Shown here: piece by piece, positions 415 through 14,228 of the stretch | Layout: each line of letters begins with the position of its first letter | How positions within the stretch are numbered: the first letter of the stretch is position 1 | Assembly: GCA_046758745.1 (NCBI GenBank) | Contig: JBHIAV010000060.1 | Span: 1 to 14,294 of the forward strand | Length of the DNA: 14,294 nt | Direction: 5' to 3' | From: Gemmatimonadota bacterium | GTDB taxonomy: Bacteria; Gemmatimonadota; Gemmatimonadetes; Palauibacterales; Palauibacteraceae | Program-made: the position numbers and the translations under genes | The notes under the pieces: model-generated | The model's input: only the letters and a program-made list of their open reading frames with translations | Told to the model about the DNA's origin: nothing | Database searches by the model: none

Positions 415-756
415 TTAGTCGAGTGCAGCCAGACCCTCGACCCCGGTCCGGATCTTCGTCACGCCGAGGACGGGATGAACGGAAACGATGCCATCACCCC
501 GCCGCCCTGTCCGGGCCGCCCGGGCGATGATCTCCGTGTACATGCCGCATTGCTCACCTGCGCATATGAAATGCACCATCGCTTTGTCCACGAATTCGGT
601 GCCTTCCTCGAAAGAGATCTTCGCGTACGCGGGATCCACGCCAGACCCGATCGCGTGCACCCACTCGACGCTGAGCCGGGGAACCCCCGACTCCTTCAGG
701 CAGTGCACCACGCGATCGAGCATCTCCGTGCGCACGATGGCACGTATCTCCACCAT
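415..756 (-). CDS. P-II family (GlnB-like) protein, metal-efflux-associated PII type
   Basis: MVEIRAIVRTEMLDRVVHCL...ARAARTGRRGDGIVSVHPV..KIRTG matches the PII N-terminus, B-loop (TGxxGDG) and C-loop (RIRTG). ATG 756 gives 113 aa; an alternative ATG at 792 has a purine-rich RBS. Lies directly downstream of cusA. Confidence 0.88.
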   Translation of the reverse strand: MVEIRAIVRTEMLDRVVHCLKESGVPRLSVEWVHAIGSGVDPAYAKISFEEGTEFVDKAMVHFICAGEQCGMYTEIIARAARTGRRGDGIVSVHPVLGVTKIRTGVEGLAALD

Positions 757-814
757 CGCCTGAGATTCTTCAATCCTCTTGGTCTTCCCCATCCTTCTCT
801 CCCGATTGACCGCG

Positions 815-3800
815 CTAGTCGGCCGGAACGAGCGCCATCTCATCTCGCAAGGCCTCACGGACGGCCTCCTCGGGCCGGCGTCGCACCTGCCACTGGCGCC
901 ACAGGAGGTAGATCGCGGGTATGACGGCCAAGGTGAGCCCGGAACCTGACAACATTCCTCCCACCATCGGCGAGGCGATCCGCTTCATCACATCCGCCCC
1001 GGTTCCGCTGCTCCAGAGGATCGGAGCCAGACCAGCTGTGATCGCCGCGAAGGTCATCACGACCGGCCGAAGCCTGTCCAGAGCGCCCTCGCGCACGGCC
1101 TCGGCCACGTCGGATGCCGTCCGCATCCGGCCTTCTAGGCTCCGGCGGTGGAACGATTCGTCCAGGTAGATCAGCATCACAACGCCCGTCTCCGCGACCA
1201 CGCCGGCCAGGGCGATGAACCCCACCCAGACGGCGACGCTGGTGTTGTAACCCAGCAGCCATAGGAACCACACGCCACCCACCAGCGAGAACGGGAGCGT
1301 GAGCATGACGATGAGAGACTCGAAGACCCCGCGGAAGTTGAAATAGAGCAGCAGAAAGATGATGCCCAGCGTGACGGGCAGGACGATACGCAGCTTCTGC
1401 GTCACCCGCTGCATGAACTCGTACTGTCCGCTCCAGGTTAGGGTGTAGCCGGGCGGCAGGCTCAGCTGCTCGGCGACCACCCGCTTGGCCTCGTCCACGT
1501 AACCACCCACGTCGCGACCTGTGATGTCCACGAACACGATCGTGACGGGAAAGGCATTCTCGGTCTTCACGGCCATCGGCCCCTGGAGAGGCTCGATCCG
1601 CGCCACCTGGCCCAGGGGAATCTGGGCGCCGCTCGGCGCGGGAATAATCACCTCGCGCAGCTTCTCAATGTCGTCGCGAAGCTCGCGGGGGTATCGCACG
1701 TTCACCGCGTAGCGCTCCCGTCCCTCCACGGTGATTGTCGCGTTTATGCCGCCGACCGTGGCCATGATGGCGCTGTGGATATCGCCCACGTTGAGGCCGT
1801 ACCTGGAGGCTTCTTCGCGGTCGATGTTTATGTCGACGTAATAGCCCGACACGCCTCGCTCTGCGAAGACGCTCCGCGTTCCCGGTACCTGCTGCATGAT
1901 CCGTTCGACCTGCTCTCCCAATGCTTGCAGGGTGTCCAGATCGGGACCGAATATCTTGATTCCCACCGGGGTGCGGATACCGGTGGCGAGCATGTCGATG
2001 CGGCCCTTGATCGGCATCGTCCAGGAGTTCGTCACTCCCGGCAACGCCACCTCCCGGTCCATTTCCGCGATCAAGCGCTCGTACGTCATGCCCGGCCGCC
2101 ACTTCTCCTTCCGTTTGAGCGTGATCGTGGTCTCCAACATGTCGAGGGGGGCGGGGTCGGTGGCGGTCCCTGCTCGGCCCGCCTTCCCGAGCACCGTCTC
2201 CACCTCCGGGAAGGAAGCGAGCACGCTGTCCTGGTAGCGCATGATCTCCCTCACCTGCGCGATGGAGACGCCTGGTACCGTCGACGGCATGAAGAGCAGG
2301 GATCCCTCCTTCAGGGGCGGCATGAACTCGCTCCCGAGGCGTTGCCAGGGAAAGACGGTCCCCGCCAGGATGACCCCAGCTGCGGCGATGACCAACCAAG
2401 GCTGCCGCAGCACGAAGTCGATGACCGGACGGTAGGCGCGGCGCAGCGCGCGGTTCACGGGGTTCTGCGCCTCCGGCCGGACCCGCCCCCGCACAAGATA
2501 GCCCATGAGCACCGGAACGAGCGTGATGGCCAGCAGCGCCGATCCCCCCATGGCGAACGTCTTGGTGTACGCCAGGGGCTTGAAGAGACGACCCTCTTGC
2601 TGCTCCAGGGCGAAGACGGGCAGGAAGCTGAACGTGATGATGAGAATGGAGAAGAAGAGCGGGGCCCCCACCTGCTTGGCACTCTCGTACACGATCTCCC
2701 AGCGGGACGTTTCCCCGTCGGCGCGCTCCAGGTGCTTGTGCATGTTCTCGATCATCACGATCGCGCCGGGAATCATGGCGCCGATGGCGATCGCGATCCC
2801 GCCCAGGCTCATGATGTTCGCGCCTACGCCGATCACTCGCATCACGATGAAGGAGATCAGGATGCCGAGCGGAAGCGTGATGATGGCCACCAGCGCCGAG
2901 CGGAAGTGCAGCAGGAAGATCACCGCGACAATCGCGACGATCGAGGACTCCTCGAAGAGCTTGTGCGTCAGGGTTTCAATCGCCTGATCGATCAGGTCGC
3001 CGCGGTCATAGGCTGGCCGCAGCCGGGTTCCGGGCGGGAGACCCTCCTGGATCTCGACCAGCCGCTCCCTGATGGCCTTGATCGTCTTCAGCGCATCGGT
3101 GCCGAAGCGCATCACCACGATACCCGCCACCACCTCGCCCCGCCCGTCGAGGTCGGCCGCGCCGCGCCGGGGCGCCGGCCCGATCTGGACCGTGGCCACG
3201 TCGCCGACTCGGATCGGAGTCCCGTTGGGGGTCGCTCCGACTGCCACGTTCTCGATGTCCTCTATGCCTTTGAAGTATCCGAGACCGCGGATCATGTACT
3301 CGCGCCCGCCCATCTCCAGCACTCGCGCCCCGATGTCGATGTTGTGGGCGCCGATCGCCTGCGCCACGCGGGTTACCGGGATGTTGAAGGCCCGGAGCCG
3401 CTCCGGATTCACTTCGACCTGGTACTGCTTCACGAAGCCACCCAGGCTCGCCACCTCGGAGACGCCGGGGACGGCCGTGAGCTGGTAACGGATGTACCAG
3501 TCCTGGAGCGTGCGCAGTTCCGACAGATCCAGGCTGTCCGACTCCAGCACGTATTCGTAGACCCAGCCGACCCCGGTGGCGTCCGGACCGAGGGTGGGCT
3601 CGACCCCGGGCGGGAGCTGCTGTCGGATGCCGTTCAGATACTCCAGGACGCGGGAGCGGGCCCAGTAGATGTCGGTCCCGTCCTCGAAAATCACATACAC
3701 CAGGCTGAGCCCGAAGAAGGAGTAGCCGCGCACGACACTCGCTCCAGGAACCTTGAGCATCTCCGAGGCGATGGGATACGTGACCTGGTCCTCGACGATG

Positions 3801-3976
3801 TCCGGCGCCTGCTCGCGGAAGTCCGTCTGGACGATGACCTGGACGTCAGAGAGGTCCGGAATCGCGTCGAGGGGAGTGCGGCTGATTGCTATCAAGCCGC
3901 CACCGACCACCGCGACGGTCGCAAGGAGAACGAGGAACCGGTTCTGGAGCGACCAGGCGATGATCCGGTTAATCAT
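815..3976 (-). CDS. cusA: CusA/SilA-type heavy-metal efflux RND permease (Cu(I)/Ag(I) type) with altered proton-relay residues
   Basis: 1053 aa with signatures DAIPDLSDVQVIV, GPDATGVGWVYEY, NIMSLGGIAIAIG, EGRLFKPLAYTKT and GSEFMP. Met triad M563/M613/M662 corresponds to E. coli M573/M623/M672. ATGA overlap with cusB at 3973-3976. Confidence 0.97.
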   Translation of the reverse strand: MINRIIAWSLQNRFLVLLATVAVVGGGLIAISRTPLDAIPDLSDVQVIVQTDFREQAPDIVEDQVTYPIASEMLKVPGASVVRGYSFFGLSLVYVIFEDGTDIYWARSRVLEYLNGIRQQLPPGVEPTLGPDATGVGWVYEYVLESDSLDLSELRTLQDWYIRYQLTAVPGVSEVASLGGFVKQYQVEVNPERLRAFNIPVTRVAQAIGAHNIDIGARVLEMGGREYMIRGLGYFKGIEDIENVAVGATPNGTPIRVGDVATVQIGPAPRRGAADLDGRGEVVAGIVVMRFGTDALKTIKAIRERLVEIQEGLPPGTRLRPAYDRGDLIDQAIETLTHKLFEESSIVAIVAVIFLLHFRSALVAIITLPLGILISFIVMRVIGVGANIMSLGGIAIAIGAMIPGAIVMIENMHKHLERADGETSRWEIVYESAKQVGAPLFFSILIITFSFLPVFALEQQEGRLFKPLAYTKTFAMGGSALLAITLVPVLMGYLVRGRVRPEAQNPVNRALRRAYRPVIDFVLRQPWLVIAAAGVILAGTVFPWQRLGSEFMPPLKEGSLLFMPSTVPGVSIAQVREIMRYQDSVLASFPEVETVLGKAGRAGTATDPAPLDMLETTITLKRKEKWRPGMTYERLIAEMDREVALPGVTNSWTMPIKGRIDMLATGIRTPVGIKIFGPDLDTLQALGEQVERIMQQVPGTRSVFAERGVSGYYVDINIDREEASRYGLNVGDIHSAIMATVGGINATITVEGRERYAVNVRYPRELRDDIEKLREVIIPAPSGAQIPLGQVARIEPLQGPMAVKTENAFPVTIVFVDITGRDVGGYVDEAKRVVAEQLSLPPGYTLTWSGQYEFMQRVTQKLRIVLPVTLGIIFLLLYFNFRGVFESLIVMLTLPFSLVGGVWFLWLLGYNTSVAVWVGFIALAGVVAETGVVMLIYLDESFHRRSLEGRMRTASDVAEAVREGALDRLRPVVMTFAAITAGLAPILWSSGTGADVMKRIASPMVGGMLSGSGLTLAVIPAIYLLWRQWQVRRRPEEAVREALRDEMALVPAD

Positions 3977-5226
3977 CGTCGGGCTCCCCCCGAACTGGTG
4001 TCCCGCGCCGAGGGTCGGTCCTCCGAATCCCCGGCGGAGCCGCTGCCCACGTGCTGCATCCCCACCATCTCGCCACCCGTTCCGGCCAGCCGGGACTCGG
4101 CGTCGACCAGGAAGTTGGCGGAGGCCACGATCGTCTCCCCCTCGGACACTCCTTGGAGGATGTGTACGCGGCCTCCCGCGCGGGACCCGAGGACGACCTC
4201 CCGGGGAACCAACATGCCCTCCTCGTCTCGGAGAAAGACCACGTTCCGCTCACCGGTCACGACGACGGCCTCGAGGGGAACCGTCACTCCATCGGCGATC
4301 GCCTGCACGTCGAAGAAGACTGTCGCGAACATTCCCGGCTTCAACCGCAGATCCGGATTCGGCACGCTGACGCGCACCCGGTTCGTCCGGCTCTTCACGT
4401 CGACGGTCGGGTACACGAAGCTCACGGTTCCCATCACGTGCTCGCCCGGATACGCAGCCAACTCGATGTGGGACCGGGATCCTTCCCGCACGAACTGCAG
4501 ATCCTGCTCGAACAGCTCGCCCTCGACCCAGACCATCGAGAGGTCCGCGATCCGGTACAGACGCATCCCGGGCATCACACGCTGGCCCTCCCACACGTCC
4601 TTCTCCAGGACGATGCCGCTCGCCGGCGCGACCAGGGTGAGCGTCTTCATCACCTCCCCGGTGCTCTCCAGTCGATCGATCTGCTCGGAGGTGATATCCC
4701 AGTATCTCAGTCGGCGCCGGGCCGCTTCGAGCATGTCTCCGGCGCTAGCCCAGGCCTCGCCCGCCGTCGGATCAACTTGCGAGACGAGACGCTTGGCGGT
4801 GAGTAGCTCCTCCTGGGCGGCTACGAGCATGGGGCTGTACAGGGAGAGGAGCGGCTGTCCCTTCCCCACGGTCTCCCCGGTGGTATTCACATACAGCCGC
4901 TCCACGAATCCGCTGATCTTAAGGGTGACATCGGAGACATCGGGTTCCGGTGCCACGACAAAACCGACCGTGCGAATCGTCCGCATGAGGGTCTCGCGGC
5001 GGGCCGTCGTGTAGATCACACCGAGCGCTTGCTCCTGCGCGGGGGTGAGGTGCACGGGCCGGCGGATCGCCGCCCCCGTGCTGTCCATCGCCCCCTGCGT
5101 GCCACCGGCCTGCATCCGGGCATGTTCCTCGGCCGTCATGCCGAGCGTGTCTGAACTTCCTTCGTCCGGTCCGCAGGCCACGAGGAGAACCGCAGTCAGC
5201 AGCAGGGCGGCCGCTCGCACCTTCAT
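3973..5226 (-). CDS. cusB: CusB-type RND periplasmic adaptor (membrane fusion protein), lipoprotein
   Basis: 417 aa with lipobox LVAC (Cys18), YSPMLVAAQEE hairpin, IADLSMVWVEG, LKPGMFATV and ANFLVDAESRL. Met/His-rich termini. ATGA overlaps with both neighbours. Confidence 0.95.
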   Translation of the reverse strand: MKVRAAALLLTAVLLVACGPDEGSSDTLGMTAEEHARMQAGGTQGAMDSTGAAIRRPVHLTPAQEQALGVIYTTARRETLMRTIRTVGFVVAPEPDVSDVTLKISGFVERLYVNTTGETVGKGQPLLSLYSPMLVAAQEELLTAKRLVSQVDPTAGEAWASAGDMLEAARRRLRYWDITSEQIDRLESTGEVMKTLTLVAPASGIVLEKDVWEGQRVMPGMRLYRIADLSMVWVEGELFEQDLQFVREGSRSHIELAAYPGEHVMGTVSFVYPTVDVKSRTNRVRVSVPNPDLRLKPGMFATVFFDVQAIADGVTVPLEAVVVTGERNVVFLRDEEGMLVPREVVLGSRAGGRVHILQGVSEGETIVASANFLVDAESRLAGTGGEMVGMQHVGSGSAGDSEDRPSARDTSSGGARR

Positions 5227-6530
5227 CTGACACCTCCCGGGTCGGCGCCGACAAGCGCCTCCACCTGCGCAAGAGCGCGCTGGTAGTCGGCGGCGAGGCG
5301 CACGCGATCGATCTCGTATCGGTTCACAGTCATCTCGTTCTGTACCAGCGTCATGAAATCCACCCTCCCAACCCGGTAGGCAGAGAGCGCCGATTCTACG
5401 GCAGCCCGAGCCTGTGGCAGCACCGAGGTCGCGTAGAGTTGCGTGAGGTTCCGGGCTCGTTCCGCCTCTGCCCTGAGCTCGGTGATCCGCGCGTAGGTCT
5501 CGTTATAGAGGTCGATTTCCCTGGCCTCCTCCATGCTCAGCGTGGCGCTCATCTGACGGCGAAGCGGGAGCTGGCGTGAGCCTGCCCACACTGGAATGCT
5601 GACCCCCAGCATCAGGGTGAGGAAGTCATCGAACTGCGGACGCTGTCCATAGCCGAGGGTGACCGTGAGATCGGGATAGAGGGCTCGTCGAGCCGCCTTG
5701 TAGCCGGCTTCCGCCGCCTGCGCCCGCGCTCGGGCGGCGCGCAGGGCGGGACGCCGCCGGGCGGCCAGGGCCATCAGCGAGTCCACCGGCGGCAGGTCGC
5801 CCGCCGGCACCGGCAGTTCGAGGGCTCCGACCGGCGCGGTGGCCTGGCGGCCGAGAAGCGCGTTGAGTCGGGCGGCCATCGCCAGGCGATCCTGCTCCAT
5901 CACGGTGATCTCCTCGGTCATCTGGGCGACCGACACCTGGGCCTGGAGAACATCCTGCTGAAGGCCAGTCCCCACGCTGTACATGGTAGAGGACACATCG
6001 AGGAATTCGCGTAGCAGCTGCCGCGTGTCCTCCAGGATCCCGAGGGCGCGGTCCACGTAGGCCAGCCCGTAATAGACGGACTTGACGCCGGCGACGAGCG
6101 ATACCCCGGACTCCTCCGCCTCCAGCTCCGCCGCCTGGGCGAGGTACCGTGCCCGCTCCTCGGCGAACCCCAGCTTGCCCGGCCACGGGAAGCGCTGCGT
6201 GAGCTGCACGCTGTTCATCGTCATGGATTGGTCGGTCCTCCCCAGGTCCACGACCGGCCGATTCAGGAAACCGAAGGAGAGCTGCGGGTCGGGGAGCGCG
6301 CCGGCCTGGGGAATTCGCTCAATCGCAGCGTCCGCGCGAAGGCGGACCGCCTGCAAGAGCGGATTCGCCTCCCGAGCGAGCGCGACTGCATCCTCGAGGG
6401 TGAGGGTGTCTGCAGCCTGCTGGGCGAACGTCGGGCGCGAGAAGGCCAGGAGCGCCGTCGCGAGAGGAGGCATGCACACCCACCTCATCGGTAGCCCACT
6501 AATCGCTGGTGTGGCAAGATGATTCCCCAT
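5223..6530 (-). CDS. TolC-family outer membrane efflux protein (CusC role)
   Basis: Signal peptide ending TFA-QQ, LTLEDAVALAREANP, LPDPQLSFG, QRFPWPGK, YPDLTV and AYRVGRVDFMTLV (two OEP repeats). First gene of a C-B-A operon. Start uncertain (ATG 6530 or 6488). Confidence 0.93.
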   Translation of the reverse strand: MGNHLATPAISGLPMRWVCMPPLATALLAFSRPTFAQQAADTLTLEDAVALAREANPLLQAVRLRADAAIERIPQAGALPDPQLSFGFLNRPVVDLGRTDQSMTMNSVQLTQRFPWPGKLGFAEERARYLAQAAELEAEESGVSLVAGVKSVYYGLAYVDRALGILEDTRQLLREFLDVSSTMYSVGTGLQQDVLQAQVSVAQMTEEITVMEQDRLAMAARLNALLGRQATAPVGALELPVPAGDLPPVDSLMALAARRRPALRAARARAQAAEAGYKAARRALYPDLTVTLGYGQRPQFDDFLTLMLGVSIPVWAGSRQLPLRRQMSATLSMEEAREIDLYNETYARITELRAEAERARNLTQLYATSVLPQARAAVESALSAYRVGRVDFMTLVQNEMTVNRYEIDRVRLAADYQRALAQVEALVGADPGGVR

Positions 6531-6661
6531 CCAATGAAGGGGGGTCTGTCCGAATGGCGGTGGACCGACCCGGTTCTGAGGAGGCTTCTTTCTGTCATCC
6601 GGCTCCGCGGCAGAGACGGCCCCCCTGCCAAGGAGCCGTGCTACTTGATCGTCTGGGCCTC

Positions 6662-6715
6662 AATGTGAGTTGGGCGGGCTTAAGATTCCCCTAAGTCGCC
6701 TCTAAGATTTCTTAG
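6662..6715 (-). promoter_or_regulatory. Putative response-regulator boxes and -10 element for the tolC-cusB-cusA-PII operon
   Basis: TAAG recurs at 6681, 6692 and 6703 (11-bp period: TTAAGATTCCC/CTAAGTCGCCT/CTAAGATTTCT). On the minus strand the proximal box ATCTTAA is followed 12 nt later by CACATT (6667-6662). Same geometry as 10570-10631. Confidence 0.65.
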
Positions 6716-6880: not shown

Positions 6881-7738
6881 TCAGTTGATGCGCGGGTTCG
6901 GGTACGACGGCACCGTGACGAGGCCCGGAATCCCGAACACCCGGGAGAAGCCGACAATGAGTTCGACGTTGCCTCGCCCCCGCTCCCACTCGTCGAGCCG
7001 CGTGGCAAGCCCGAAATCGAGTACGCTCAGGTTCGTCAGCTGCCAGCGGGACCCCAGCTCCAGCCAGACGCGGCTGCGGCCTGAACCGTTCGGCACCTCG
7101 GCGTAGATGTCCCCCATGATCGCCCTGCTGAACAGGCCGATCGGATAGTCGAACGCCATGCCCCCCAGCCAGAAGTCGCCGCCGTCGGCCGCGCTCGCTG
7201 CCGCGTAGCCGCCGTTCAGGTGGATGCGAAGGCGCCCGAAGGACCGGGTCGCGAGGCCCTTCCCCGAGATCGCCCAATTCTCCCTTCCGAGTCTCCCGGC
7301 TCCCGGACTCTCCACATCCAAACGCGCGGCGAACGCAGGCCAGCTCCAGGTCTCGCGGTTGAAGTTGTACAGGAGGTGCGCGCCAGCGCTCTCGATCCCC
7401 CCTGCCGTGCTTCCCTCGGCGTCCTCCCCTCCGGCCTTGATCTCCAAGCCTACCTGCCCGTTCAGGAAGAGCCCCGTCTTCAGCTCACCGATCCCGGACA
7501 CGCCGTCTCCACCCTCTCGGAGCGCACCCCGAATCCCCAACTCGACCTCCCACTCCCGGAACTTCACGGGGTACGCGTCCTCGACCTGAATCGGCCGGTC
7601 GAGGTCGGCCGAACGGAAGTCTTCCTGTGCGGTGACCGGTGATACGGATCCGGCGATCGCAGCAAGGCCAGCCGCCACCGGTCCGAGCAGGCCCGCCCGA
7701 AAAGGTCCGGCAGACGCCGAGGCGATTCGATTCTTCAC
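6881..7738 (-). CDS. Putative outer-membrane beta-barrel (porin/transporter-like) protein
   Basis: 285 aa with signal peptide (..VTA-QED) and many alternating amphipathic strands (WEVELGIRG, HLLYNFN, LRIHLNGGY, WLGGMAFDYP, WLELGSRWQL, LDFGLATRL, LIVGFSRVF). GTGA overlap with the upstream gene at 7735-7738. Confidence 0.75.
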   Translation of the reverse strand: MKNRIASASAGPFRAGLLGPVAAGLAAIAGSVSPVTAQEDFRSADLDRPIQVEDAYPVKFREWEVELGIRGALREGGDGVSGIGELKTGLFLNGQVGLEIKAGGEDAEGSTAGGIESAGAHLLYNFNRETWSWPAFAARLDVESPGAGRLGRENWAISGKGLATRSFGRLRIHLNGGYAAASAADGGDFWLGGMAFDYPIGLFSRAIMGDIYAEVPNGSGRSRVWLELGSRWQLTNLSVLDFGLATRLDEWERGRGNVELIVGFSRVFGIPGLVTVPSYPNPRIN

Positions 7739-8865
7739 CGATCCATCCCTTCGTGCCGGGGGTGTGCGGGCACGCTGTCGGTCGGCAGCTTCTCCAGCCG
7801 GACACCCAGCGGCATCCTGAACTCCTCCATCGTGGCCAAGCGCGCGTCGGGATGACCCTGCGGGAGCCAGCTTCCGTCGGGCAGTCGCGTGGGGACACGC
7901 ATGGACCCCTCGCTCATGCTGTGTCCGGTCATCGGCATGCCGGGCGCGGTCACGGCGTCCTGAGCCGCGTAGGTCATGTTCCGACGCATCCTCTCGATCT
8001 CCGCCTCCTTCTCGGCCCGCGAGAGCGAGGCGTCGGCCATGATGTCGTTCACCACGTCATGCATCATGTGGAGGTTGTCGAAGATCTGGGCCGCGGCCGG
8101 CAACATGCGCGAGAAGCGAGGGGCCATCTCGGCCGCCAGGGGCATCACCTTCGGCGGATTCCTCAGCACCGAGTCCTTGAAGACGGCGATGACCCGATTA
8201 AGCTCCTGCCGTCGAGCCTCCGGATCGGGCTCCATGAGCGCCTCGTAGACCGCCGCGTGATGCCAGTGGTACGCCCACAGGATGCCATTGATGCCGGGGT
8301 ATTTCTTGCGAAAGGTGCCGGCCCAGGCGCCGCCTCCCTCCATCCAGCGGTGACCGTATCCGCGCGTGGAAAACGCGGTGTTGGCGCGCGACAGGTAGTA
8401 CGCGATCGCGCGCTCGCCGGCAGTCTTCTTATCCCTCACTCGATCGTCTGTGAGGATGTCGTAGAGCTGGGAGTGGAGCATGTGGGTCCAGTCCATGGCG
8501 CGCCCGGTCTCGAACGCCATCTTCGACCAGTTGGGCGCGATAACCTCGGCGGGTGGCTCGAAGCGCGGCGGATGGTCCAGGTACTCCACGACACGCGCGC
8601 GGAACGTCTCCATCTCCGCCACCGCGTCCTCTCCGCGATTCAAGAGGGTCTCGTACGCTCCGAAGTGCGCGTAATGTGCCGCGTAGAAGGACCGCGCCGC
8701 CTCGTTGTAGGTATCGTAGAACGCGAAGTTGTAGGCGGCGGGAAGCCGGTAGACCTCGTTCCGCTGCGGCGCGCTGCTGCAGGCAGAGAGAAACAGCGCG
8801 GCTCCCAGAAGCGTCACGCGATCAGCGCGGGCCGGGATCACATCCCGGAAAGTCATCTTCTCCAT
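7735..8865 (-). CDS. Uncharacterised His/Met-rich lipoprotein with four HxxH helical repeats; putative metal-binding protein
   Basis: 376 aa with lipobox LSAC (Cys29). HxxH at 64/67, 128/131, 200/203 and 266/269, plus a Met/His-rich tail (GMPMTGHSMSEGSM, HPRHEGM). Translationally coupled to the barrel gene. Confidence 0.85.
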   Translation of the reverse strand: MEKMTFRDVIPARADRVTLLGAALFLSACSSAPQRNEVYRLPAAYNFAFYDTYNEAARSFYAAHYAHFGAYETLLNRGEDAVAEMETFRARVVEYLDHPPRFEPPAEVIAPNWSKMAFETGRAMDWTHMLHSQLYDILTDDRVRDKKTAGERAIAYYLSRANTAFSTRGYGHRWMEGGGAWAGTFRKKYPGINGILWAYHWHHAAVYEALMEPDPEARRQELNRVIAVFKDSVLRNPPKVMPLAAEMAPRFSRMLPAAAQIFDNLHMMHDVVNDIMADASLSRAEKEAEIERMRRNMTYAAQDAVTAPGMPMTGHSMSEGSMRVPTRLPDGSWLPQGHPDARLATMEEFRMPLGVRLEKLPTDSVPAHPRHEGMDR

Positions 8866-8894
8866 ACCGAACCCCTGTCCTACCAGCCGGTCCT

Positions 8895-8939
8895 TCTCTC
8901 TCTCACTCTCTCTCTCTCTCTCTCTCTCTCACTCACTCA
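8895..8939. repeat. (TC/GA)n dinucleotide microsatellite
   Basis: (TC)5-AC-(TC)12-ACTCACTCA on the + strand, filling most of the 71-nt gap between two co-oriented genes and abutting the upstream TGA. Confidence 0.97.
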
Positions 8940-9494
8940 GACGTCTCGACTTCCCAGCGGAAGCAAGCCCAAGCCAAGTCCTCCGGCCAGACCCACCAGG
9001 AGGCCGATCACGCCCCATTCGGCGGCACTCCGGTTGCGTTCGATTCGGATGTCGTCCGCCCGGACCCCTCCATCGCCCACGTCATGGCGGTACGAAGCCC
9101 AACTCTCCGTGGCCAGCTTGTGTTCGTTCTCATCGACGCTCCTGCGGGCCCCCAGCACAGTCAGGTCCAGCGTGGCTACCGCGTCCCCATCGGCGGCAAT
9201 TGCCGTCACCCGGTAGGCTCCAGAGGTGACGCCTAGCGGAATGATCAGTTCGAGCGAGAACCTGCCCGCGGAATCTGACTGCACCTGCCGGAGCTCGTAC
9301 TCGCGCAGCGCCCCCACGAGCCTTAGAAGGTAAGTTTGCTTCTTGCTGAAGTCGCTGCCGTGGAGCTCCAGTACCTCACCCGCCACGACGGACGACTGCG
9401 GGCTCGTCAAGACCGCATCCTCGTGCGAGACGGCCCGCCCTGCCGATGCGAGCAAGAAGCTCAGAAACAGCGTGAGGACCTTTGCCACATTCAT
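8937..9494 (-). CDS. Secreted Ig-like-domain protein with C-terminal membrane anchor and probable mature N-terminal His
   Basis: 185 aa, AAAGGA RBS. Signal peptide ends AVS|HED. Beta-strand-rich core (VVAGEVLELHGSDF, SDSAGRFSLELIIP, GAYRVTAIA) and C-terminal TM WGVIGLLVGLAGGLGLGLL. Starts 18 nt after the cyt b stop. Confidence 0.8.
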   Translation of the reverse strand: MNVAKVLTLFLSFLLASAGRAVSHEDAVLTSPQSSVVAGEVLELHGSDFSKKQTYLLRLVGALREYELRQVQSDSAGRFSLELIIPLGVTSGAYRVTAIAADGDAVATLDLTVLGARRSVDENEHKLATESWASYRHDVGDGGVRADDIRIERNRSAAEWGVIGLLVGLAGGLGLGLLPLGSRDV

Positions 9495-9512
9495 ACTTTG
9501 CCGTCCTTTGGG

Positions 9513-10553
9513 CTACATGCCAAGATGCTGCTGGCGCGCACCAAACGCCCCGTACAGCCAGAGGGCGAGGACCGCGAGCCCGAGCAGGAGCCCCACCCAC
9601 CCCACCCAGCCGTGCCTTCCAGGCCTATCGTCGCCCCCGCGATCCAGGAGCGGGATGGTTGCGAGAAAGCCGAAGAGGATGGCGGGTCCGATAATCATGC
9701 CCCAGGTGCCCAGGAGGTTCTCGAGTCCGTAGACCCAGAGCACCGGCCAGAACGGCTTGGTGACCTCCACACCGGCAACGGCCGGATAGCCCAAGTTTTC
9801 GGGTGCAACGACCGCCAGGAGCCCTATGGTCGCGAAGGCGAGCGATGCGACGCCCGCAAGCCGTATGGCATGTGTCCGAAAGACGCTAGTCTCCGAAGCA
9901 TCGGCGTGAATACCCAGATGGCGGATAAGCCAGAAGTGAAGTCCCATGAGGCCGATGAGAGCGAGCGGCAGGAGGCTCGTGTGAAGGCTGAAGATCCGCG
10001 AGAGCAACGAGGTGCTCCGCGTGAAGCTCTCGGTGAAGAAGGCACCCAGCGCGCCCGTGAGCTCGCCTCCTGTCACGAAATGCGACAGCGCCTCGAATCC
10101 TTCCTGGTCGTTACGCAGTGCTGTGCCAGTCACGATGAGGAGGAAGAGTAGCCCGGCCATTCCGACGCCGGCCCACCAGGTAACCTCACGCGGCTTCTTG
10201 TAGGAGCGTCGCCAAAACACGTAGATGAGGTGTGTCGTGATGGTCACGGTCACCGCGCCCGCGGACCAATAGTGGAGGCTCCGCACCCAGTCCCCGAGCG
10301 GCGCACGAGCGATGATATACAGGACGCTGTCGTGGGCTCCGATCGGGTTTGGATTGTAGAACTGCGCGAGGTAGATGCCGGTGAGCAGAAGGAGAATAAT
10401 GAAGAATGCGGTCAGCCCTCCCAACATGTACGTCCAGCGGTTGGTCACTTTCGGGATGGGATAGTCGAGCGCCTTGAGCGCTGCTCGCTCCGCTAGCCAG
10501 CTGGCGTACGAATCGCTCTCGCCTGCCTCGTCAGCCACGTTCACCCCCGACAT
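9513..10553 (-). CDS. Cytochrome b of the bc1/b6f family (b6 + subunit IV-like fusion, ~7 TM), orphan
   Basis: 346 aa with YMLGG, TGIYLAQFYNP, RSLH94..H108, YKKPREVTWWAG and H191..H206 (four heme ligands, 13/14 spacing). KPFWP sits at the PEWY position. No Rieske or CxxCH protein in the window. Confidence 0.92.
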   Translation of the reverse strand: MSGVNVADEAGESDSYASWLAERAALKALDYPIPKVTNRWTYMLGGLTAFFIILLLLTGIYLAQFYNPNPIGAHDSVLYIIARAPLGDWVRSLHYWSAGAVTVTITTHLIYVFWRRSYKKPREVTWWAGVGMAGLLFLLIVTGTALRNDQEGFEALSHFVTGGELTGALGAFFTESFTRSTSLLSRIFSLHTSLLPLALIGLMGLHFWLIRHLGIHADASETSVFRTHAIRLAGVASLAFATIGLLAVVAPENLGYPAVAGVEVTKPFWPVLWVYGLENLLGTWGMIIGPAILFGFLATIPLLDRGGDDRPGRHGWVGWVGLLLGLAVLALWLYGAFGARQQHLGM

Positions 10554-10569: not shown

Positions 10570-10635
10570 AGCCTAGCCGACTATGGACTAAGATCGCCCC
10601 AACTTCTCGTTAAGATCTCTTTAGAATCTTACAAT
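10570..10635 (-). promoter_or_regulatory. Putative response-regulator boxes and -10 element for the cyt b operon; divergent promoter region
   Basis: CTAAGAT (10588) and TTAAGAT (10610) lie 22 bp apart, with an inverted copy AATCTTA at 10625-10631. On the minus strand the proximal box is followed 12 nt later by TAGGCT (10575-10570). Plus-strand TACAAT at 10630-10635 could serve the regulator gene. Confidence 0.65.
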
Positions 10636-10772
10636 CGCCCTGGAAACCGAAGGAGAGGGTTCTTAGCGGGGCCTCATCGCCTATTTTGGGATCGCAGCGA
10701 GGCAAGATTTTCACCTCCAGAGGACCGGGGAGGAGGATCGATCCGTCCCCCTTTCCGGCTCGGCGTAGGGCC

Positions 10773-11456
10773 ATGAAGATACTTCTCGTCGAAGATGACG
10801 CTCGGGTGGCCCGCTTCATCGAGAAAGGACTGCGGGAGGAGGGTCATGTGGTTGACCTGGCTACCGACGGCGTTGAAGCCGTGGCGCTCGCGCACGTGAC
10901 CGACTACGACGTGATCGTGCTCGACGTGATGCTCCCCGGCAAGAGCGGCTTTCACGTGACCTCCGAGCTTCGCTCCCAAGGCAACCCCACCCCGATCCTC
11001 ATGCTGACGGCCCGGGATTCCCGGGAGGACATCGTGCAGGGCCTCGACGTCGGGGCTGACGACTATCTGACTAAGCCGTTCGACTTCGAGGAGCTGCTAG
11101 CGCGCATCCGCGCGCTCGCCCGGCGCATTGGCGCTATCGACGAGGGCACGCTCCGCTTCCAGGACATCGAGTTGGATCGACTCCAGCACGAAGCGCGGCG
11201 CGGCGGCCAGCGCATCAACCTCACGCCGACCGAGTTCAAACTCCTCGAGGCCCTGATGCGCAAGCCTGGACAGGTGGTGAAGCGCCTCGAGCTCTTGGAT
11301 CGCGTGTGGGGGATGAGCTTCGATCCGGGCACGAACCTGATCGATGTGCACATGGCGAACCTTCGGAAGAAGCTGGAGAAGGAGGGGGGGAGCCGGGTTA
11401 TCTCCACTGTCCGCGGTGTCGGATTCCGGCTGGCGAGCGTAGAAGGCCATGAGTAA
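10773..11456 (+). CDS. OmpR-family response regulator (CusR/CzcR-like)
   Basis: MKILLVEDD..YDVIVLDVMLP..PILMLTAR..GADDYLTKPF receiver domain and LTPTEF..IDVHMANLRKKL..TVRGVGF winged helix. ATG 10773 (227 aa) is preferred over the ORF-track start at 10686. Confidence 0.96.
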   Translation: MKILLVEDDARVARFIEKGLREEGHVVDLATDGVEAVALAHVTDYDVIVLDVMLPGKSGFHVTSELRSQGNPTPILMLTARDSREDIVQGLDVGADDYLTKPFDFEELLARIRALARRIGAIDEGTLRFQDIELDRLQHEARRGGQRINLTPTEFKLLEALMRKPGQVVKRLELLDRVWGMSFDPGTNLIDVHMANLRKKLEKEGGSRVISTVRGVGFRLASVEGHE

Positions 11457-12921
11457 GCTCGGTCGTTCCTTTCGGGGGCGCCTTGCCCTCCGCTTCGGAG
11501 CCACCGTCATGCTGGTCGCCGCCGCAGGCTCCCTCTTCGGTTACCTGGTACTGCGCAGTCTGCTAATCGACCAGCTCGACAGGACGCTTCTGCGTTTGGC
11601 AGGGATCGAGGCAGCTGCCGCCGCCGACACTCCGGACTCCACAGTACATTTCCACGACGAGGTCTTCCTCGCTGTCGGCCCCGGACACAAGGCGATCCTG
11701 AGCCGTTACGCGGAGGTGTGGAGCCTGGAGGGAGAACCGGTCCTGCGAACCGAGAACCTGGCAGGCGGCAATCTTCCGCTCGACGGGGAGGTTCGAAGCC
11801 GCGTCGTCTCTACCGGTGACCCGGAGCTCTTCAGCTTCGAGTGGGGGGGCACCGAATACCGGAGCGTTCTCTACCCCCTGGGTCTGGTGGGTCCGCAGCA
11901 TGAGCCGCATCTGCTTCAGGTGGCCGCTGCCACCGACCAGACAAGGGCTGTGCTCGGCAATTTCTTGAAGGTGTTGGCCGTGCTTGCGTTCCTGGGGGCT
12001 CTGGCGGGTCTAGGATTGGGATGGTGGGTGGCCGGATCCGCCATCCGGCCGGTGATGGAGATCACTCGGCAGGCGGAATCCCTCGAGATGTCGCGGGGCA
12101 AGCACCGGATCATTGCGCAGGCAGAGACCGAGGAGATGAGCCGACTCGTTTCCGTTCTGAACTCCATGCTGGGAAGGATCGATACCGCATTCGAAAGTCA
12201 GCGACGCTTCCTCGCCGATGTCGGACACGAAATCCGCACGCCCCTCACCGTGCTTCGCGGAGATGTCGAGGTTGCCCTCCGCCGGCATCGCTCACTGGAA
12301 GAGTACGAGGCGATCCTGGGACAGACGTTGGAGGATCTCAAGGATGTCTCAGCTCTGGCCGATGACCTCATCACCCTGGCCCGCGGAGAGAGTGGCGCCC
12401 TGACCCCCGAGTTTCGCCCCATCCAAGCGGAGAACCTGCTCCGCGAGGTCGCCGAACGGTACCAGGGAGCCGCCGAGAAAGGGGGAGCCTGCCTCAAGAT
12501 TGGAAGCGACCCATCGGCCGTGGTCGTGGGGGACCGTACGCTGCTCGCGCGGGCCTTGGGCAACCTTGTGGACAACGCCATCAAATACGGAGGCGACGGA
12601 GAGATCACCGTTGGAGCCAGCTTGGCGGACCATGGCAGCGTCGAGATCCGCGTGGCAGATGAGGGCCCCGGAGTCCTGCCAGATGAGCTGCCGCACCTCT
12701 TCGACCGCTTTGTCCGCGGGGAAGCGGGCCGGCGGGTTGGGAGAGGCTCCGGGCTCGGCCTATCAATCGTCAAGGCGATCGTGGAGAGCCATGGCGGAAC
12801 GATCCAAGTGGATAGCGTCGTCGGCCGCGGAACGACTTTTCGGCTCCACCTACCTGCCGTGGCTCACAGGCAAATCCGATCGCGGAAGGTCGATGTCGTG
12901 GGGACCCACTCCGGAGATTAG
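11449..12921 (+). CDS. Sensor histidine kinase (2 TM, periplasmic sensor, HAMP, HisKA, HATPase), heavy-metal-sensor type
   Basis: 490 aa with H-box FLADVGHEIRTPL, N-box NLVDNAIKY, G1 DEGPG, F-box LFDRF and G2 GSGLGL. 8-nt overlap with the regulator. Confidence 0.96.
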   Translation: MSKLGRSFRGRLALRFGATVMLVAAAGSLFGYLVLRSLLIDQLDRTLLRLAGIEAAAAADTPDSTVHFHDEVFLAVGPGHKAILSRYAEVWSLEGEPVLRTENLAGGNLPLDGEVRSRVVSTGDPELFSFEWGGTEYRSVLYPLGLVGPQHEPHLLQVAAATDQTRAVLGNFLKVLAVLAFLGALAGLGLGWWVAGSAIRPVMEITRQAESLEMSRGKHRIIAQAETEEMSRLVSVLNSMLGRIDTAFESQRRFLADVGHEIRTPLTVLRGDVEVALRRHRSLEEYEAILGQTLEDLKDVSALADDLITLARGESGALTPEFRPIQAENLLREVAERYQGAAEKGGACLKIGSDPSAVVVGDRTLLARALGNLVDNAIKYGGDGEITVGASLADHGSVEIRVADEGPGVLPDELPHLFDRFVRGEAGRRVGRGSGLGLSIVKAIVESHGGTIQVDSVVGRGTTFRLHLPAVAHRQIRSRKVDVVGTHSGD

Positions 12922-13619: not shown

Positions 13620-14105
13620 TTAGTGCTCCCGTTCCGATGCCGCGTCGGCCGCCGCACAGAGACGTGTGCAGACATCTCGCAGAGAATGCTGCCATTCACC
13701 CCGCAGGGAGACACCCAGCTCCACACGTCCGGTGGGAATCGCGATTCGGCAATGCGTCACGTGCGGGAGGTCGAGCAGCTCCCTTCTCAGCGCCTCGAGA
13801 CGTCCGGAAGAGCCGACGAGCCAGGTCGTCACGCGCGCCTCGGCCATATGCACCGAATAGCCGCGACGCTCGAGGATCCGTATAACCTCTTCCAACCACG
13901 GTAGGGCGTCGACCTCGATCGACACCGTGTCTCGCATGGGATTGACCGCCGCCCCTCGCACCCCATCCAGCTTCCTCAGAGTCCGCTCGAGCGGTGCTCC
14001 CTCCGACGCACAGCCAAGCTCCGAGATCGTGAGGCAGACTCGGAAGCCGGACGCGCCGGCCACGGCGTACGGCGTTTGCTCTTCAGGGGAACCGGTTTCG
14101 CTCAT
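13620..14105 (-). CDS. Protein with two degenerate HMA (ferredoxin-like) domains
   Basis: GGAGG RBS before ATG 14105. LTISELGCASEGAPLERTLRKLDGVRGAAVNP..GYSV is an HMA domain with CxxE instead of CxxC. The second repeat (LRRELLDLPHVTHCRIAIPTGRVEL) lacks the CxxC loop. Confidence 0.72.
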   Translation of the reverse strand: MSETGSPEEQTPYAVAGASGFRVCLTISELGCASEGAPLERTLRKLDGVRGAAVNPMRDTVSIEVDALPWLEEVIRILERRGYSVHMAEARVTTWLVGSSGRLEALRRELLDLPHVTHCRIAIPTGRVELGVSLRGEWQHSLRDVCTRLCAAADAASEREH

Positions 14106-14228
14106 GCTTCCTCCGGCGCCGGATCCCGCCGACCTGCGATGGGCCTCGTCGCCTCCGGGCAGGTCGCTCTCCGTCCGAAGCACCAGGATCGCCCGTCCCA
14201 GCAGTGCAGCGCTCCTCCCGTGGAACTA

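Follow-up and report, generated by a model that had tools for sequence, protein, structure and literature searches.

What do four tightly packed genes do between a metal-type two-component system and a cusCBA efflux operon, and do they act as one system? The question is raised by a 14,294-nt contig (JBHIAV010000060.1, assembly GCA_046758745.1; hereafter the window, meaning the whole stretch of DNA that was analyzed) of a Gemmatimonadota bacterium. At 6881-10553 on the reverse strand it carries, in order of transcription, genes for a cytochrome b6-like di-haem membrane protein of 346 amino acids (aa) with about seven transmembrane helices (9513..10553), a 185-aa immunoglobulin (Ig)-like periplasmic protein with an N-terminal His after cleavage and a C-terminal membrane anchor (8937..9494), a 376-aa lipoprotein with a duplicated all-helical core, six invariant His and a Met-containing tail (7735..8865; the helical protein), and a 285-aa outer-membrane beta-barrel with 12 strands and a conserved N-terminal segment (6881..7738). 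A sequence-only reading had proposed that the four products form one undescribed copper pathway across the envelope. Our results show that the genes are two independent two-gene modules, cytochrome b/Ig (module 1) and helical/barrel (module 2), which meet again in other copper islands in another order and do not form an obligate unit. We think there is about an even chance that this locus of a Gemmatimonadota (Longimicrobiales-type) genome is an envelope island that responds to copper and is built from such shuffled modules. The copper role of both modules is well supported by context, and we infer every metal-binding, redox, transport and regulatory step.

The division into two modules comes from the relatives of these proteins. 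Among 401 sampled Gemmatimonadota genomes (unpublished G157 included), an Ig-family profile gave matches in 31, and 27 genomes have a solid match. All 26 Ig loci with E ≤1e-21, one of which (L094) is from G157, have a cytochrome b gene immediately upstream in the same orientation; the four weakest, partial matches among the 30 loci returned have no adjoining cytochrome b gene. A scan of species-representative genomes with the helical protein gave 218 confirmed relatives, the best 80 of which were kept with their flanks. In 74 of these 80 loci a barrel relative is adjacent to and co-oriented with the helical protein, in either order (helical then barrel in 39, barrel then helical in 35). Five of the six loci with no adjoining barrel sit at contig ends, and L032 alone has room for one. 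Neighbours were counted with a crude open reading frame (ORF) caller, the ORFs being clustered and representatives scanned, and because kin genomes are not independent the neighbour and pairing counts are descriptive.

The expectation that all four genes travel together fared differently from that of pairwise adjacency. If the four proteins made up one obligatory linear route, with the cytochrome b reducing copper on the Ig protein, which would pass it to the multi-His lipoprotein and on to the barrel, the two pairs should be found together, yet a cytochrome b or Ig gene occurs near the helical protein in 2 of the 80 loci. The helical protein is present in 108 of the 401 genomes (unpublished G057 and G157 included) as against 31 for the Ig protein, and among the 27 genomes with a solid Ig match, 11 hold it and 16 do not. 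The tight, co-oriented packing behind one box-bearing promoter speaks for such a route, as do the 11 both-module genomes in part: the modules are adjacent in four (G000, which is the genome of the window; G093, locus L125; G310, locus L124; and G157, by coordinates), and about 9 kb apart and so within 10 kb in one (G043). A partial clustering of the four genes in L063 and L066 points the same way. In G142 the modules lie 27 kb apart, however, and in five of the 11 they are on different contigs or replicons. Where all four co-occur the gene order also differs, being regulator pair, barrel, helical, cytochrome b, Ig in L124 and cusABC, barrel, helical, cytochrome b, Ig in L125. With the junction in the window itself depending on a repeat bridged by a single contig, we regard an obligatory route as improbable. 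Adjacency was thus conserved within each pair (26/26 and 74/80), and the co-occurrence of all four genes was limited to few other genomes and another order.

That junction deserves a closer look. The spacings in the four-gene run are 18 nt, 71 nt and a 4-nt GTGA overlap, and the ORF listing gives the same gaps as had been reported before. A 58-nt (TC)n/(GA)n low-complexity tract at 8888..8945 fills the 71-nt spacer between the Ig and the helical-protein genes, that is, between the two modules. One contig bridges it, from run X1, which is possibly the source of the assembly, and the short-read contigs of runs X2 and X3 stop inside the tract. This is the pattern on which one could argue that two unrelated contigs were joined at the repeat and that the four-gene adjacency is an assembly artefact. 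We consider this very improbable, since contigs from the other runs enter the same repeat on both sides, as expected of neighbours, X1 and X2 both have even depth where the modules meet, and the modules are adjacent in other genomes with no need of such a tract. Possibly, tract length might vary between cells and affect the coupling of the modules.

Two further ORFs were seen in L124. A 495-aa ORF with a Met/His-rich N-terminus (3925-5412) precedes the four-gene set and is possibly another outer-membrane protein. In the ORF that follows the set (9026-9547), the sequence behind the signal peptide starts with AHDFW, so that a His is once more N-terminal.

The first protein of module 1 belongs to a known family. 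It matches PF00033 (E 3.6e-22, 79.6 bits vs. a cut-off of 27.2), and its best solved relative is cytochrome b6 (6rqf, E 1e-23). The residues H94, H108, H191 and H206 align with the haem ligands of b6, those for two b haems on helices B and D, and are invariant in 21 sequences. In the same 21 sequences H158, in the loop after helix C, is also invariant, and so is a loop EVTKPFWP.LW.Y..EN that stands at the place of PEWY in bc-type proteins, the position of this quinol-oxidation motif being one that we presume rather than derive from alignment to a solved chain. The protein ends in a tail Q-x-H-L-G-M, in which H343 is invariant and M346 nearly so (at least 90%). Hydropathy detected six hydrophobic helices, and the haem-bearing helix B makes a seventh; with seven helices the tail would be periplasmic, if the N-terminus is inside as in b6. 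Both H158 and the H343/M346 tail would face the periplasm. No Rieske or c-type cytochrome domain was found by Pfam or NCBIfam in the nine main proteins of the window, which agrees with the earlier description of an orphan cytochrome b. Database pipelines label the many relatives of this protein as bc1 cytochrome b subunits, and the genome of the window encodes a separate cytochrome b in a 566-aa ORF on contig 36.

The Ig protein has a signal peptide with an AxA-type cleavage site, and the mature N-terminus would be His24, which is nearly invariant in the family. A single hydrophobic helix (157-181) follows near the C-terminus, and the family keeps a juxtamembrane motif together with this Gly-rich anchor helix. 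G103 is invariant, and E65, D102 and D104 are found in at least 90% of the sequences. The assignment to an Ig-like fold is tentative: a profile search of solved structures gave weak Ig-domain rows (E 0.17 or worse), and sequence and Atlas look-ups gave weak Ig/IPT-like leads. The Atlas look-ups, those for the Ig protein included, gave no named leads, the clusters being from Gemmatimonadota, Nitrospirota and Chloroflexota. There was no profile match between the protein and PF07987 (YcnI/DUF1775).

In module 2 the helical protein carries an LSAC lipobox and HxxH motifs at residues 64, 128, 200 and 266, plus one at 368 in the tail. The lipobox is limited to this clade, and helical proteins elsewhere have an ordinary signal peptide. 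Across 35 sequences of the family H67, E72, H128, H131, D136, H200, H266, H269 and D270 are invariant. Residues 40-170 and 175-305 align with each other (98.9% probability, E 4e-17, 115 columns), so the helical core is a tandem duplication, and each half consists of one H...YE helix and one D..HxxH....D helix. The predicted model is all-helical and of fair confidence (predicted local distance difference test, pLDDT, 80.4). Fold searches with this model gave a best E of 0.41 in Foldseek and a best Z of 5.5 in VIA among 48,161 chains, a lack of matches that does not prove a new fold. There is no meaningful Pfam match in the 35 members, and cupredoxin domains of the kind found in the multicopper oxidases PcoA, CueO and CutO are absent, the helical protein being all alpha with no Pfam match. 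The family is large, with 580 clusters/members at E ≤0.001 in a profile search of 1.84 billion representative proteins (50% identity), and its distant members have long Met/His-rich tails. In some relatives (P0156, 594 aa; L047, 11548-12078; L078, 2571-3152) the helical domain is fused to, or stands before, a membrane protein of DUF2231-like type in which an HP.xxHFP motif and a linker rich in His are seen.

The barrel has a signal peptide, and its model (pLDDT 85.8) is a 12-strand beta-barrel that is preceded by a conserved segment QxDYRNLDxDRPxxxEDAYP before strand 1. The closest folds are FapF (Z 24.8, root-mean-square deviation (rmsd) 2.2, 217 residues) and the COG4313 channel 4rl8 (Z 22.1, rmsd 2.6, 217 residues); PcoB (7pge) follows at rank 47 with Z 13.5. 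Weak matches to PF13557 were obtained for 7 of 31 barrel relatives (best E 5.2e-5), and the window barrel itself has no Pfam match, the PcoB/CopB family included. Of the 150 representative clusters listed, 9 have a single ORF in which a complete barrel precedes the helical domain, and fusion ORFs of barrel and helical protein are also present in L060 and L069. These fusions argue that the helical protein and the barrel work together.

Are the two modules linked to copper? Near the helical protein we found a copper-type P1B ATPase (TIGR01511, 576 bits, above cut-off) in 13 of the 80 loci, CusA at ≥50% identity in 6, the response regulator at ≥50% identity in 10, and CopCD and a small metal-binding protein (SMBP) in 3 each. 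In 19 loci, as judged by eye, small CutF-like ORFs lie directly upstream, with a signal/anchor segment, His/Cys motifs and a C-terminal PPP; these ORFs have no Pfam or NCBIfam match, and no such CutF-like/DUF2946 leader ORF is present in the window. The union of these copper-type neighbours with kinase and cytochrome b/Ig neighbours covers 40 of the 80 loci. For module 1, 11 of 21 wide-flank loci have nearby cus genes and/or a regulator-kinase pair of the window type (L117, L118, L119, L121, L123, L124, L125, L126, L130, L132 and L134). The repeated linkage of relatives to copper genes supports the copper context that had been read from the window. Two other neighbourhoods were noted. In a group of loci from one Longimicrobiales group (L018, L020, L024, L033 and L034) a divergent NosR-like gene (FMN_bind + Fer4_5) and ApbE flank the helical/barrel pair, and a DUF5916/CBM9 protein and an SMBP follow downstream. 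In L114 (G369 contig 9) a 45-residue remnant of the Ig anchor region lies ~290 nt upstream of a cusC that is 67% identical to the window cusC, which suggests that module 1 was lost from a related island.

The window itself places both modules beside a copper pump. A 350-nt gap separates the barrel gene from cusC, and cusC-cusB-cusA span 6530-815, encoding a CusC-like outer-membrane factor (5223..6530, reverse strand; PF02321, E 3.4e-42), a CusB-like periplasmic adaptor (3973..5226, reverse strand; PF16576, E 8.3e-76) and a CusA-type heavy-metal pump of the RND (resistance-nodulation-division) class (815..3976, reverse strand; TIGR00914, 1149 bits, above cut-off). The pump is closest to CusA, scoring 1107 bits against E. 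coli CusA and 550 bits against ZneA, and Met residues align at E. coli CusA M573, M623 and M672 (counted along the alignment), which we take to be the Cu(I)/Ag(I)-binding triad. On the other side, divergent from the cytochrome b gene, are genes for an OmpR-family response regulator of the heavy-metal (CusR/CopR-like) type (10686..11456, forward strand; Response_reg + Trans_reg_C) and a sensor histidine kinase of the heavy-metal (CusS/CopS-like) type (11449..12921, forward strand; HisKA + HATPase_c). Their best NCBIfam models are TIGR01387 for the regulator (245 bits, under the curated cut-off of 279.2) and TIGR01386, heavy metal sensor kinase, for the kinase (258 bits, under the cut-off of 292.6). 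The stated position between a metal-type two-component system and cusCBA is borne out by these heavy-metal models and the CusA-type pump.

A second link to the pump is a shared promoter box, which was also correctly seen before. On the reverse strand, an operator-like ATCTTA-N16-ATCTTA lies 5' of cusC (6681..6708) and another 5' of the cytochrome b gene (10589..10631), the latter with an additional inverted ATCTTA at 10626-10631. In the coding-strand reading both show the same 28-nt layout, with pairs 22 nt apart at 6681/6703 and 10589/10611, and both are embedded in ~40-nt stretches of similar layout. ATCTTA occurs six times in the 14.3-kb window vs. 1.3 expected, a count reached in 1 of 200 shuffles, and five of the six copies fall in these two upstream regions. 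The layout would fit direct-repeat binding by an OmpR-family regulator, and the CopRS/CusRS-like two-component system may drive both box-bearing promoters and thereby cusCBA and the four genes, as the shared motif suggests. Between box and start codon the cusC leader contains a 16-bp GC-rich hairpin (window 6600-6640, reverse strand), and folding of the whole leader was no better than that of shuffles (z -0.82).

We propose that the cytochrome b and the anchored Ig protein form one membrane complex. Its two b haems would span the membrane, and electrons could move between the quinone pool and copper on the periplasmic face, where the Ig domain may offer a site suited to Cu(II), a single N-terminal His like that of YcnI. 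The likeliest reaction would be that quinol reduces the bound Cu(II) to Cu(I). Since Cu(I) is poorly held by N/O ligands, it would pass to Met-rich acceptors and to CusCBA, a pump for Cu(I)/Ag(I) only. This direction is favoured because the Ig ligands suit Cu(II), the co-regulated pump takes Cu(I) and no CusF was found. The missing CusF had been reported for the window, and in its genome (3.08 Mb, 130 contigs, 87.4% complete) PF11604 likewise gave no match, a control search having recovered the family in E. coli. An absence of multicopper oxidases was also tried as an explanation for the module and was dropped because the genome has two Cu-oxidase_3 (multicopper-oxidase-type domain) matches.

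The reverse direction must be taken seriously. Periplasmic Cu(I) oxidation is an established protective reaction of CueO, PcoA and CutO, and a cuprous oxidase that sends electrons from periplasmic Cu(I) through the b haems to the quinone pool would achieve it free of oxygen. For CutO the protective reaction is described in PMC8456105. In module 1, Cu(I) could be bound at His158, at the His343/Met346 tail and at the Ig domain; the first two sites are invariant or nearly so, probably periplasmic and of ligand types suited to Cu(I). Moreover, hydrothermal vent metagenome is the label of every holder of this DNA (one study code), and oxygen may be scarce there. The genome already has two multicopper-oxidase-type domains, however, and the pump with which module 1 is co-regulated requires Cu(I) rather than Cu(II). 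In addition, it is thermodynamically difficult to pass electrons from Cu(I) to a low-potential quinone. We grade the cuprous-oxidase direction a serious rival of low probability, and reduction of Cu(II) stays our preferred direction.

Module 2 could be a copper-handling pair between periplasm and outer membrane that works like the PcoA/PcoB or CutF-CutO sets with unrelated folds, a proposal we base on the pairing and fusions of the two proteins, on the leaders and on the tails. Copper binding would fall to the helical protein, with its Met/His tail and its pseudo-symmetric His cluster as the sites, and the barrel would let copper through the outer membrane.

A number of observations weigh against a copper function of the two modules or against their joint regulation. 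Apart from His24 the Ig protein has no conserved His or Met, it lacks Cys, and it matches no Pfam family at E ≤0.1, no NCBIfam model and no copper family model. The closest barrel folds carry amyloid subunits (FapF) or are COG4313 channels, and not metal transporters. The genome of the window has a second cytochrome b/Ig copy on contig 18 (L086, 6418-10378; 77% and 54% identical, respectively) that starts 2 nt after the stop codon of metE, the cobalamin-independent methionine synthase, with no metal gene seen; counting this copy, 10 of the 21 wide-flank module 1 loci have no cus or regulator gene nearby. Likewise, 40 of the 80 helical-protein loci have no recognised copper gene, and the helical/barrel pair stands beside MetH/homocysteine methyltransferase-MTHFR genes in 4-5 loci and beside NosR-like/ApbE genes in 4-5 loci. 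A search for the box with one mismatch allowed in 137 sequences (1.68 Mb) returned the window's own copies and one in L131, and none upstream of relatives; a consensus promoter and terminator scan gave no match, and no RNA runs are listed among the holders of the stretch. The single-contig bridge between the modules belongs with these points.

A further reading is that the pairs are not copper-specific, with module 1 serving general quinol-linked electron transfer and module 2 being a channel with a periplasmic enzyme or binder for another substrate, such as a different metal or, as for COG4313/FapF, a hydrophobic or peptide cargo, and both merely riding in metal islands. The barrel folds, the metE, MetH/MTHFR and NosR/ApbE neighbourhoods and the roughly half of loci with no recognised copper gene all fit this view, and a binuclear Fe, Zn or Mn site would also be in keeping with a duplicated helical bundle that carries six His plus Glu/Asp. 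What makes it unlikely in our opinion is that the recurrent neighbours are of copper types (CusA with its Met triad, copper P1B ATPase, CopCD, CutF-like leaders), that the tails are rich in Met and His, and that the box is shared with cusC. The copper-responsive island of shuffled modules is the reading we retain. A more far-reaching version, in which the cytochrome b6-like/Ig pair is a quinol:Cu(II) reductase replacing CusF by delivering Cu(I) to CusCBA, and the helical protein a new binuclear copper fold docked or fused to a FapF/COG4313-type channel, the two jointly making a trans-envelope copper redox and export route particular to Gemmatimonadota and neighbours, is something we put forward as a doubtful, if attractive, extension.

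Two other ORFs lie towards the ends of the window. An HMA-domain ORF (13620-14183, reverse strand; PF00403, E 3e-6) with no obvious CxxC in its translation lies on the opposite strand downstream of the kinase gene, and we counted it as part of the copper context. Directly after cusA, and overlapping its end, is a P-II-like ORF (415-858, reverse strand; PF00543, E 6e-9) that may be the fourth gene of the cus transcript. Rfam gave no match within the window. By their labels, the closest relatives of the window proteins belong to Gemmatimonadota, Longimicrobiales or Candidatus Palauibacter.

The pump components and the regulators are identified by Pfam and NCBIfam, which also assign the cytochrome b to PF00033, and the other three proteins belong to no family in either, in line with the earlier reading of the set as undescribed. 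No paper describing either pair was found in the open-access literature. Both pairs are good candidates for new copper-handling machinery, and they indicate two further building blocks of copper defence in a poorly studied phylum. If the cytochrome b/Ig pair acts on copper, copper detoxification would be tied directly to the quinone pool, and one family of 'orphan' cytochrome b genes that are now labelled bc1 subunits would be given a function. The six-His helical family, with no Pfam model or solved fold, pairs with and is sometimes fused to an outer-membrane channel. Since the four proteins are of small size and can be expressed, these hypotheses are open to direct test.

The copper defences described so far for the periplasm use CusF, multicopper oxidases, CopC/CopD and PcoB-type barrels, and the two modules resemble known systems in some respects and depart from them in others. 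The window cytochrome b is like the b6/bc-type proteins in its PF00033 domain, in the equal spacing of the four haem His and in a subunit-IV-like C-terminal extension of three helices. It differs from the bc-type complexes in having no Rieske or cytochrome c/f partner in the window, an invariant KPFWP instead of PEWY, the extra invariant His158 and the C-terminal H-x-x-M tail, and from b6 in that a Met replaces the Cys that holds haem ci.

For the Ig protein the closest architectural precedent would be YcnI of Bacillus subtilis. According to PMC8424229, YcnI combines a signal peptide and an N-terminal His with a beta-sandwich and a C-terminal helix, and its mono-His brace binds one Cu(II). The two proteins share His as residue 1, an extramembrane beta-sandwich (predicted in our case), one C-terminal transmembrane helix and a genomic link to copper. 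They are unlike in their partner, which is a cytochrome b here and CopCD/YcnJ there, and the Glu/Trp partners of the YcnI site cannot be mapped onto the Ig protein. That haem-b membrane proteins may act on periplasmic copper has been proposed for another family, the PepSY_TM protein CrpH (PMC13038864). CrpH and the Fe-S protein CcoG share with module 1 the idea of a membrane redox protein that passes electrons to periplasmic copper; the families are unrelated, and CrpH and CcoG serve copper acquisition for oxidases, whereas module 1 sits with an efflux pump.

Module 2 may be compared with PcoA/PcoB, CopA/CopB and the cutFOG genes of Rhodobacter capsulatus (PMC8456105). The likeness lies in a periplasmic copper protein, putative in module 2, beside an outer-membrane barrel under a CopRS-type system. 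CutF-like leaders are described in PMC8456105 next to copper oxidase genes, and the small ORFs upstream of the helical-protein relatives resemble them by their features. Met/His-rich segments, and in relatives CutF-like leaders directly upstream, are a further likeness. The window has no CutF-like ORF, however, the periplasmic partner is an all-helical, duplicated six-His protein and not a multicopper oxidase, and the barrel is nearer to FapF/COG4313 (Z 22-25) than to PcoB (Z 13.5). With FapF and the COG4313/PF13557 channels its model shares the 12 strands and an N-terminal segment before strand 1, in a different context and with a different partner. Taken together, the kind of system is known, a regulator-controlled copper-resistance island with accessory envelope proteins, and what is new in it are two undescribed protein pairs.

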